Position numbers and translations under genes: made by a program | Notes under the pieces: generated by a model | Told to the model about the DNA's origin: nothing | The model's database searches: none | What the model saw: only the letters and a program-made list of their open reading frames with translations | NCBI GenBank assembly: GCA_000004695.1 | Contig: CM000150.2 | Location: 4,800,001-4,864,000 of the forward strand | Length of the DNA stretch: 64,000 nucleotides | From: Dictyostelium discoideum | Lineage: Eukaryota | Direction of reading: 5' to 3' | In this document: positions 57,327 through 60,262 of the stretch, piece by piece | Numbering within the stretch: position 1 is the first letter of the stretch | Layout of the letters: each line of letters opens with the position of its first letter

Positions 57327-60262
57327 TTATTCACTATTACTAATTATTTTACACATTGAACATCCATAACAAAATTCTTCACCAGAAATATGTTTTTCAC
57401 TTCCTTCACACTTACATTGAGGTAATTGAGTTTTTGGGATTTGCGCAACATGATTTACATTTCTATGACATTCAACACAGAAATGAGAGTTACCCCAACA
57501 AAAGAAAGCAGAGATACGACAACAATATTTACATTTGTACTCTATAAACTCTTTTCCATGGATTTTACAATTTTCATTACCACTTGAACTACAACCTCCA
57601 CAAACCAATTCTTCAGGTTTATGCTCACCAGCAATTCTATTTTCGTCAGCAATTGCACAAACCTTTTCACCACCAAAATAGGGTTTCTTACATTTGAAAC
57701 ACATAAAGTAAGAGAATCTATCCATAACATAACCTTCTTTATTATTATACCACTTTGAGAGAGGATCATCAAAGTCTACATCTTTCTCAACACCAAATAA
57801 TGATAGCCTATTCAAAGCTTTAACCTTTATAAAACCATAAAGTTCATTAATTGGTGTGAGATATTTCTCCAAACAAGGATGTTGCATATTTTGTGAACAT
57901 AGCGCACATTTTACAAATCCAAAACTTATTCTTGAACTTGTCCATCTCTTTTTTAAAACTGATGAACAACATTTCTTATGAAATATATGACCACACTCTA
58001 ATTGGATACATGGTTCTGATGATAATGAATCCGTCCAACAAATATTACAATAATCATTTGATTTCTGATTTGTTTTATATTTATTTATTAAATTTGGTTT
58101 TTTTATTATATCATTATTTATTATTGTATTTACTGTTGTACTTGTAGTAGTAGTGGTCGTTGTAGTAGTAGTATTTGTAGGTAATGGAGTTGGAGTATCA
58201 TAATCATTATTATTACAATCTGGATGAATACATGGTAAACATTTAGTTTCGTCTAAAATTCCAAGACATTCATGACCACATCTTAATATTTTTTGACATG
58301 ATTTAATTGATTTTGAAATACATTCATCATTTGAACAACAATTATTATTAATATTATTTCTATTTATAGTTGTTGTAGTGGTAGTTGTATTATTGTTATT
58401 GGGTTTTAAAGATAATCTTGGTGAAACTATTGGAGTAATTGGACAAATTGCAACCCTACAAAATCTACAATGTTTTGAAGAATTATAAATTTGAAATTGA
58501 GCACATGTATAACCTAAATGATAAGGATGAATTTTACATTCTGTACAAAATACACAAGAACATTGAGGACATCTAAATCTAAATTTCCTTTTATGTTCAA
58601 TTGATTCTCTACTTAATTGTTTACCATTTTCATCATATTCTATAGTTTGATCATTTGATTTGATTGAACCATTTTTATTACTATTTAAACTACTTAAAGG
58701 TATGATAACCTTTTCCATCACTAAATTACAACAAGGACATTGAATATATGAGTCCTTATTTCTAGAGATCGCTTGATCCAATGAAGCATCATCATATATT
58801 GAATACTCTTCATCAGTTAATACTTGTTTAATATCATATACTGATAATGATATCTTACATGATTTACATTTTATCTTTGAAACTCTCTTTTCATCAATCC
58901 TTTTCTTTATAAAATTATATAAACATTTTTTACAATAAATATGTGTACACTTTTTTTTTTTTTATAAAAAAAAAAAAAAAAAAACCATTAATTAGTATTT
59001 TATAAATTTATAAATAATAATAATAATAATAATTTAATACAAACATCTAAAAATATAACTTTTTCAATATCTGTTATTATATTTAAACAATCTATACATT
59101 TTATAAGCAATTGATCATTATTACTACCATTGTTATTATCACTACTAGTATCGTTATTAAGTTTAGATTGTTCTATTATTAATTGAGAATTAATTAATTT
59201 ATTAATTTTATCTAAATCATTAGAATTGTTATCAGATGATGTGATAGAGGTATCAGTTGATGTTGAAAGGGATGATGATCCTGATGAAAATGGTGAACTA
59301 ATTGTATAGGTATCAACAATTGGTACATTATCATCTTCTCTAATAATTAAACCAAGTGGTGGATTTGAAATTAGCATTCTTTCCATCCTTGAGTTTATTG
59401 TTGAGGATGATGATGATGATGATGATGTCAATATATCTGCTTTTAAGAATCCCAAACCATTCATTCCAAATAAATCCAATGTATTTGGTTTTATAAATTC
59501 ATTTGATTTTTTTTTATTATCTTTATTCTTATTAATATTATTATTTCTTTTATTTTTTTTATTTTTATTATTATCTTTTTTATTTTTATTTTCACTATTA
59601 TTATTATTATTATTATTATTATTATTATTGTTATTATTATTATTATTATTATTATTATTATTATTATTATTATTATTATTATTATTATTATTATTATTAT
59701 TATTATTATTATTATTATTATTATTATTATTAATGTTATTTTTATTATTATTCGAGTTTAATATTGCTGTTTCATTAGTTTTGAAAAATGTATTTACAAA
59801 CCAATTGTTTGTTAAAGAGAATTGGCCATTATTATTGTTATTATTATTGTCGTTGTTTTCTTTATCGCTAGTATATTCTTCTTCGTCGTCATCGTCATCT
59901 TCTTCCGAGTTATAATCCTCGCTTGTTTCCTCGGAATTACTTATACTATTATCATTATCGCTACTACTATTGCTACTACTATTACTATTACTATTGCTAT
60001 CATCACTTTCATCGCTATCAACTATTTTGTTTTTGTTATTATTATTATTATTTTTATTAATATTATTACTATTGTTGTTTTTGTTGGTATTTTCAACAAT
60101 TCTATTGAATGGGTATCTATTTAACCCATAACTTTTCCCATTATTATTGTCTAAATGATGATGATGATGATGTAAATCCCCAATTAAATCTTGCTCAAAA
60201 ATTCCATTACTTTCATCTTTATGAAAATGGTTATGATTAAATAAAAATGATTTAAAATCCAT
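57327..60262 (-). CDS. Multi-domain E3 ubiquitin ligase, about 946 aa. It has an RBR-type RING1-IBR module followed by a MYCBP2/Highwire-type RING plus tandem-cysteine (RCR) module. Exons 59045..60262 and 57327..58949.
   Basis: ORF 59000..60262 ends in CIDCLNIITDIEKVIFLD then GT. After a 95-nt intron, the upstream in-frame extension of ORF 57327..58781 continues CTHIYCKKCLYNF...KCKSC, which is RING1 of the C3HC4/RBR type. Next come an IBR (CPCCNLV...FRCPQCSCVFCTECKIHPYH), then CNICWTDSLSSEPCIQLECGHIFHKKCC (RING). The C-terminal part reads RISFGFVKCALCSQNMQ...GYVMDRFSYFMCFKCKKPYFGGEKVC...FIEYKCKYCCRISAFFCWGNSHFCVECH...GEEFCYGCSMCK. It is collinear with the tandem-cysteine domain of human MYCBP2 (RITFGFISCPICKNK...AYYVCYKCRKAYFGGEARC...[28 protein letters not shown]...GEEFALGCGVC) and keeps both relay cysteines. 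Confidence 0.8.
59597..59732. repeat. (TTA)n microsatellite of about 45 units, giving poly-Asn in the N-terminal low-complexity region of the RBR-RCR E3.
   Basis: A perfect trinucleotide run. Confidence 0.95.

Follow-up and report, generated by a model that had tools for sequence, protein, structure and literature searches.

A 64,000-nucleotide stretch of Dictyostelium discoideum DNA (contig CM000150.2, positions 4,800,001 to 4,864,000 of assembly GCA_000004695.1; here called the window) carries a two-exon gene whose 946-residue product appears to join an RBR-type RING1-IBR to a RING-Cys-relay (RCR) cassette of the MYCBP2 type. The order of the predicted parts is RING1, IBR, a Cys-rich pre-RING zinc module, a second RING and a tandem-cysteine (TC) domain. 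From its sequence and by analogy with MYCBP2, the protein is probably a working RCR ligase that links ubiquitin to Ser/Thr through an ester, and its RING1-IBR would play an accessory part. That one gene combines these two halves had been proposed in a preliminary description of the window, and profile and Foldseek matches to RBR ligases and sequence matches to the MYCBP2 entry 5o6c bear this out, with RING1, IBR, second RING and MYCBP2-like TC domain in the order claimed and all of the quoted motifs present.

The RING-Cys-relay cassette and the RING1-IBR front half

The C-terminal 240 residues match the MYCBP2 catalytic fragment (Protein Data Bank (PDB) 5o6c/6t7f) with a phmmer E-value of 8e-68, the family profile matches 5o6c at E = 4e-106, and a global alignment to the MYCBP2 fragment gives 44% identity over 248 positions. 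All of the MYCBP2 Cys and His residues up to H4583, together with C4600, C4631 and C4634, map onto Cys or His in the window protein. At the last TC zinc site the MAFFT alignment has C918 opposite C4600 but nothing opposite C4614, H4617 and H4620, which fall in a shortened loop; a manual reading pairs this C4614/H4617/H4620 site with C920 and H926 on the shorter loop C918-x-C920...H926. Pfam matches to the RCR RING are below the curated cut-off but consistent with a RING. On these alignments the back half is unambiguously homologous to the MYCBP2 RCR module.

Conservation of individual residues was counted in 120 homologues of 28-60% identity (Table 1). The upstream relay cysteine C837 lies in the context GGEKVC within a Gly-rich mediator loop (FGGEKVCAIADENRIAGE), and E853, the counterpart of MYCBP2 E4534, is E or D in 110 of the 120 homologues. 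Two aromatic positions are similarly retained, W891 (MYCBP2 F4573) being W or F in 117 of 120 and F896 (MYCBP2 F4578) being F in 113 of 120, and Ile709, the x2 residue in the first CxxC of the RCR RING and so at what we take to be the canonical E2-contact site, is Ile in 113/119. The numbering by which C4572, H4583, E4534 and F4573/F4578/F4586 are catalytic or pocket residues of MYCBP2 is one that we take to be correct; with an offset of 4377 the 263-residue PDB chain has C, E, C, F, F, H and F at 4520, 4534, 4572, 4573, 4578, 4583 and 4586, the expected residue type at 7/7 positions. The relay mechanism, the His general base and the three-Phe cluster or pocket of MYCBP2 have been described (PMC6769291; PMC9527308), and MYCBP2 C4520S is catalytically inactive (PMC12664034). 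As read from the sequence, every testable feature of an RCR enzyme is present except full conservation of the Thr pocket.

The preliminary description aligned the TC domain with the MYCBP2 RCR and credited it with both relay cysteines. Both are indeed kept, as C837 and C890, so that the claim itself stands, but they had been assigned to the motifs FGFVKC and YFMCFKC, which residue mapping rules out by placing these motifs at MYCBP2 C4437 and C4506/C4509. We infer that C754 of FGFVKC, which forms a CxxC with C757, and C823/C826 of YFMCFKC are zinc ligands because the CxxC spacing is conserved.

Matches of the front half are to RBR ligases. After MYCBP2 the best matches of the family profile to PDB sequences are HOIL-1 (3.5e-10), ARIH2 (1e-9), RNF216 (1e-8), HOIP (1e-6) and RNF144A (2e-5), with ARIH2 and RNF31 matching the second half of the IBR, which has an insert of 52 residues between its first and second Cys pairs. 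An AlphaFold2 (AF2) model of the RING1-IBR, built on a 98%-identical substring of the allele of another strain (P0001), has a predicted local distance difference test score (pLDDT) of 92.2 and a predicted template modelling score (pTM) of 0.74, and the top 32 Foldseek matches of this model in the PDB are all RBR ligases, aligned over 183-230 columns. The Pfam IBR is found in 28/72 family members with a best E-value of 5.7e-10. Its ligands, profile matches and predicted fold mark the front half as a true RING1-IBR of the RBR type. A Rcat/RING2 with a catalytic cysteine was not matched by sequence profile or by fold in the PDB, nor was a canonical Rcat motif present in any of 124 new top matches of a profile of the RING1-IBR and the zinc module that follows it. 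Since the Rcat is absent, the RING1-IBR cannot be an RBR ligase alone.

Table 1. Positions, in the window, of the parts of the RING1-IBR-RCR gene
Feature	Window position	Strand	Basis
Whole coding region	57327..60262	minus	946 aa, two exons, stop TAA at 57327-57329
Intron	59044..58950	minus	95 nt, GT...AG, 94% A+T, inside RING1 coding region
N-terminal low-complexity region, residues 1-380, N/S/D-rich	59123..60262	minus	composition
RBR-type RING1 (C3HC4): C389, C392, C407, H409, C412, C415, C434, C437	58857..59098 (spans intron)	minus	ligand conservation, profile, AF2/Foldseek
IBR (C6HC): C477, C480, C533, C536, C541, C544, H550, C555	58503..58739	minus	ligand conservation, profile, Pfam in relatives
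MYCBP2-type pre-RING Cys-rich module: C567, C570 (CRFC), variable loop, C611, C616, C624, C630, H632, C634, C643, C646, C651	58215..58469	minus	conservation, MYCBP2 match
RCR RING (RING-H2): C707, C710, C725, H727, H730, C733, C754, C757	57897..58049	minus	one-to-one with MYCBP2 C4390...C4440
Tandem-cysteine (TC) domain, residues 823-939	57351..57701	minus	5o6c match, residue mapping
C837 codon, counterpart of MYCBP2 C4520, upstream relay Cys, mediator loop FGGEKVCAIADEN	57657..57659	minus	alignment; 120/120 homologues
C890 codon, counterpart of MYCBP2 C4572, downstream relay/esterification Cys, AFFCWG	57498..57500	minus	alignment; 114/115 ungapped homologues
H901 codon, counterpart of MYCBP2 H4583, proposed general base	57465..57467	minus	alignment; 116/117 homologues

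The pre-RING zinc module and the wider family

Between the IBR and the RCR RING lies a Cys-rich module that starts with C567-R-F-C570, 11 residues past the IBR, and continues through a variable loop, of low complexity in Dictyostelium, into the near-invariant block C611-x4-C616-x7-C624-x5-C630-G-H632-x-C634-x-G-x6-C643-x-P-C646-x4-C651. Each Cys and His of the module is 85-99% conserved among the 120 homologues. The same module is present in MYCBP2. Animal MYCBP2 C-terminal fragments reaching upstream of the crystallised part were gathered by a search with the human RCR sequence, and in 47/50 of those of at least 340 residues the motif lies directly upstream of the RCR, in the form CRFC...C-x4-C-x7-C-x6-CGHxCxG-x6-CLPC (examples are P0125, P0141, P0146, P0153, P0164, P0179, P0196 and P0201). 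In a bee MYCBP2-like protein it reads CRFCGTTGNTGLLAVGNICADHDCQEHGKNACSKVHPCGHICGGVRNEKTCLPCLH, and a BLASTP alignment of the window protein to this protein (E = 2e-79) is continuous through the module. A conserved pre-RING zinc module is thereby identified in MYCBP2 itself, outside the crystallised fragment.

The preliminary description had read the motif KHCRFC as a vestigial Rcat. It was right that the protein has no functional Rcat, but KHCRFC is not a remnant of one, a reading ruled out by the CRFC...CGHxCxG...CLPC module in animal MYCBP2 fragments; as judged from the alignments KHCRFC is the first knuckle of the conserved Cys-rich module. Since the same module precedes the RCR in animal MYCBP2, it belongs to the MYCBP2/RCR side of the protein and is not a decayed RBR part. 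The conserved C611-C651 block had been overlooked.

The module had no Pfam match at E <= 10, and its best Foldseek matches in the PDB, the NFX1-type finger proteins FAP1 and ZNFX1 (E = 1.2 and 8.4), are sub-threshold and non-significant, with no Rcat among them. Among the animal sequences, P0131, P0153 and P0196 have a B-box-like CxxC...H finger further upstream of the zinc module. In a 630-residue protein of the krill Meganyctiphanes norvegica (P0119) the pre-RING unit and a full RCR come after several Cys-rich repeats of NFX1-like type, without RING1-IBR; on its sequence, animals too have RCR cassettes in more than a single architecture.

Collinear full-length homologues of about 520-800 residues are found in other dictyostelids and in Balamuthia and Vannella (Amoebozoa), in Anaeramoeba (Metamonada), in the ciliates Stentor, Tetrahymena and Moneuplotes, in a sample labelled Neobodo, in the charophyte Chara and in the fern Ceratopteris. 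Among 1.84 billion cluster representatives the RING1-IBR-module profile matched 254 at E <= 1e-30 and 968 at E <= 1e-10, and the architecture is present in about 250 clusters at 50% identity. An RCR lies downstream in 106 of the 124 new representatives found with this profile, most of the others being truncated. UniRef automatically names relatives, including those of D. purpureum, as 'RCR-type E3 ubiquitin transferase'. In terms of sequence this is an ancient, widespread and uncharacterised eukaryotic E3 family and not a Dictyostelium oddity, such that the view of an unusual compact amoebozoan architecture gives way to one shared across distant eukaryotic groups.

Dictyostelids have at least two more RCR genes, a C2-domain paralogue (P0070, P0093) and a short MYCBP2-like gene (P0235). 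In P0070, P0093 and P0034, which include D. purpureum and D. firmibasis sequences, an N-terminal C2 domain precedes the same RING1-IBR-module-RCR core, and this branch hints that membrane or Ca2+ targeting applies to part of the family. Other relatives depart from the common layout. In P0280 (1011 aa, about residues 345-1011) the RCR RING is broken right after FCNIC by LTGDHMVLTSSGW..., which looks like a Hint/intein N-terminal block and is followed by about 650 unrelated residues with no RCR detected before the sequence ends; the break may reflect an intein-like element inserted into an E3 gene of eukaryotic type, or a faulty gene model. In P0275 (834 aa) an apparent SPRY-type region takes the place of the RCR after the RING1-IBR and the first half of the pre-RING module, so that either the domains were truly swapped or the gene was wrongly predicted. 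A Pfam Trm112p-like match (PF03966) occurs in 10/72 family members, including P0031 and P0036, with a best E-value of 2e-8.

The N-terminus of the window protein is of low complexity, as the preliminary description had it, with residues 1-380 containing 32% N, 14% S and 8% D. It includes an uninterrupted poly-Asn run of 45 residues (residues 178-222, window 59597-59731, minus strand) that is missing from P0001, the protein of 904 residues from the other D. discoideum strain, and is a strain-variable repeat. The low-complexity N-terminus is not conserved among non-dictyostelid homologues, and its 380 N/S-rich residues form a disordered extension specific to the lineage. Among homologues with an initial Met, 50/112 have a CxxC...H...C finger in the first 30 or so residues (P0008, P0010, P0017 and P0024 for example), reminiscent of ubiquitin-binding UBZ fingers, followed in the sequences inspected by an acidic, coiled-coil-like stretch; dictyostelids have N/S-rich low complexity instead.

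Proposed mechanism and alternative readings

By analogy with MYCBP2, the second RING (C707-C757, with Ile709) would bind ubiquitin-loaded E2 (E2~Ub), from which ubiquitin would move by transthiolation to C837, on the Gly-rich mediator loop, before an intramolecular relay to C890. Discharge to a substrate Ser/Thr hydroxyl would give an ester, with H901 as the putative general base, E853 assisting, and W891 and F896 forming part of the acceptor pocket. The least certain step is that of the RING1-IBR, which may be an accessory platform for ubiquitin or E2~Ub acting in regulation, processivity or the recognition of substrate or ubiquitin chains. A non-lysine ligase, as suggested in the preliminary description, is a reasonable prediction from the conserved RCR catalytic residues.

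A number of observations weigh against this reading or parts of it. An alignment of the C-terminal region to MYCBP2 had been proposed as a check on the relay cysteines and the threonine-binding residues; the relay cysteines are kept and W891 and F896 are aromatic, but the position of F4586 is V904, which is not conserved and is Q, A or P elsewhere in the family. Because this third pocket Phe is not conserved the Thr/Ser preference may differ from that of MYCBP2, in Thr-over-Ser or even hydroxyl selectivity. A Pfam scan of the window protein itself gave no IBR call, the domain being called only in relatives. The AF2 model of the pre-RING module, derived from the exon-2 DNA, is of moderate confidence (pLDDT 75-89 in folded parts) and has no significant structural neighbour by Foldseek in the PDB. 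Within RING1 the x2 position of the first CxxC, which we take to be the canonical RING E2-contact site, is Asp/Glu in dictyostelids (CIDC, CVEC, CTDC; D391 here); this weakens the case that E2 is loaded via RING1 in this species, and the dictyostelid clade may have lost the canonical binding of E2 by that domain.

The change at V904 would also suit a conventional RING ligase, or pseudo-RCR, in which the TC domain is a structural zinc scaffold only and ubiquitin moves from E2 to lysine directly. We regard this as improbable, given that some 120 very divergent homologues keep the two relay cysteines together with the His and the Glu near-perfectly, a degree of conservation that points to selection on the catalytic mechanism. 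Equally improbable is a dual-catalytic hybrid in which the RING1-IBR and the Cys-rich module together form a working but highly divergent RBR with C630-G-H632 as the C-x-H site of its Rcat, giving two thioester centres or a RING1-bound E2~Ub that feeds the relay. In keeping with such a hybrid, C630, H632 and C634 are each kept in at least 116/120 homologues, the 11 conserved Cys/His of the module are an odd number that could leave one Cys zinc-free, the short spacing from the IBR is roughly that at which an Rcat starts, and the RING1 x2 position is hydrophobic (I/V/L) in 51/90 non-dictyostelid homologues. Against it, the module precedes the RCR in animal MYCBP2 with no RING1-IBR visible in the retrieved fragments, the canonical Rcat motif occurs in 0/124 relatives, the sub-threshold structural matches of the module are to NFX1-type fingers and not to RBRs, and the Asp/Glu of dictyostelid RING1 is not the hydrophobic residue of those other homologues. 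MYCBP2 4378-4640, which lacks the module, is moreover active in vitro. An evolutionary reading, to which we give a fairly low probability, holds that the RBR-RCR protein is the ancestral RING-Cys-relay form from early eukaryotes, that animal PHR proteins such as MYCBP2 kept only the pre-RING module, RING and TC domain, and that the RING1-IBR is a second, RBR-style loading site holding E2~Ub open and feeding the mediator-loop Cys. Were this true, RCR enzymes would have arisen from an RBR whose Rcat gave way to a relay of two cysteines, and the chemistry of Ser/Thr ubiquitination would be ancient and pan-eukaryotic.

All of these readings, like that of an active RCR ligase with an accessory RING1-IBR, place both halves on one polypeptide. 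That the two minus-strand open reading frames (ORFs; 59000..60262 and 57327..58781) are instead separate genes or a mis-joined model, with the RBR-like and RCR-like parts on different polypeptides, is very improbable indeed, even though an exact-sequence look-up of the 946 residues gave no match in the protein collection. The intron proposed in the preliminary description has canonical splice sites and joins the ORFs in frame to give a coding sequence of 2841 nt, and the exon-1 frame meets a stop 45 nt into the intron. It falls between the second and third zinc ligands of RING1, with C389 and C392 in exon 1 and C407, H409, C412, C415, C434 and C437 in exon 2, and because RING1 is split in this way neither ORF alone encodes a complete domain. 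P0001, an independent NCBI model from another D. discoideum strain, has the same start (MDFKSF...), the same junction and the same end (...CKIISNSE), with 96% identity over the C-terminal 559 residues and differences mainly in low-complexity runs. Homologues, including P0001 and transcriptome-derived sequences, are continuous over the splice junction as ...VIFLDCTHIYCKKC, those of other lineages are collinear over it, transcriptome assemblies included, and both halves are present in 106/124 relatives. The flanks of the gene are 89-91% A+T and its closest protein relatives are from Dictyostelium. On this evidence from the DNA and from related sequences, the two-exon gene with its RBR-like and RCR-like parts in one polypeptide is real.

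Several other ORFs lie in the window. The neighbouring ORF at 56092-56685 (minus) is proline-rich, matches the actin-binding motif WH2 of Pfam at E = 2.4e-10 and repeats ASKPAPPSFKAPPPV four times in tandem. Further ORFs are an NPC1 N-terminal domain exon at 62764-63228 (plus, E = 3e-17), one at 53881-54750 (plus, E = 2e-7) that resembles SNAP, the soluble NSF attachment protein, and a protein-kinase exon at 47973-48335 (minus, E = 1e-20).

Significance and comparison with known systems

The preliminary description held RCR enzymes to be known mainly from giant PHR proteins of animals. This needs amending, as another D. discoideum gene, DDB_G0284853, has already been termed a 'mycBP2/Highwire-like protein' in passing (PMC6743453). 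The reviews cited here (PMC9527308; PMC9120709) treat RCR ligases through MYCBP2 alone, which one calls the first example of its class and another takes to be conserved between C. elegans and mammals, and a literature search found no paper describing RCR modules outside animals, the RING1-IBR fusion or the pre-RING module. Through the UniRef names the RCR homology is already in databases, the fusion was not found described in the literature, and the chemistry is not unprecedented.

What the window gene adds is a complete RCR catalytic cassette, every catalytic residue included, in a compact protein from an amoeba that is open to genetics, almost always fused within its family to an RBR-type RING1-IBR. 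The RCR Ser/Thr-ubiquitinating machinery would accordingly not be limited to animals, and the family offers RCR enzymes small enough to express for studies of structure and mechanism, a route to test the age and generality of ester-linked Ser/Thr ubiquitination, and the suggestion that the RBR and RCR classes are concretely linked in evolution.

Among dictyostelid proteins DDB_G0284853 and D. purpureum DICPUDRAFT_41102 (P0235) are alike in having RCR cassettes in the same genus. Both are separate paralogues of the window gene: the published peptide (PMC6743453) is a mismatch to the window gene, which has FFCWGNSHFCVECHR, and P0235, of which DDB_G0284853 is likely the D. discoideum counterpart, has 247 residues and no RING1-IBR. 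In its C-G-H-x-C core the pre-RING module is like the NFX1-type zinc fingers of NFX1/FAP1 and ZNFX1, but with no significant match in sequence or structure this likeness is a lead only.

Compared with the RBR ligases HOIL-1/RBCK1, ARIH1/2, RNF216, HOIP and parkin, the window protein matches in RING1, linker helices and IBR, in sequence and fold, but has neither the Rcat/RING2 nor the RBR catalytic Cys and so fails the defining feature of the class. With MYCBP2 it shares the pre-RING module, RING-H2 and TC domain in collinear order, and it keeps the pair of relay cysteines, the His that would act as general base, and the Glu. It differs in having W at the F4573 position and V at that of F4586, and in the shorter loop of its last zinc site. 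PHR proteins carry RCC1-like, PHR, filamin, DOC and Myc/FBXO45-binding regions, none of which was found in the window protein. In place of the about 4,640 residues of MYCBP2 the window protein has 946, and these set an RBR-type RING1-IBR in front of the catalytic cassette that the two proteins share.

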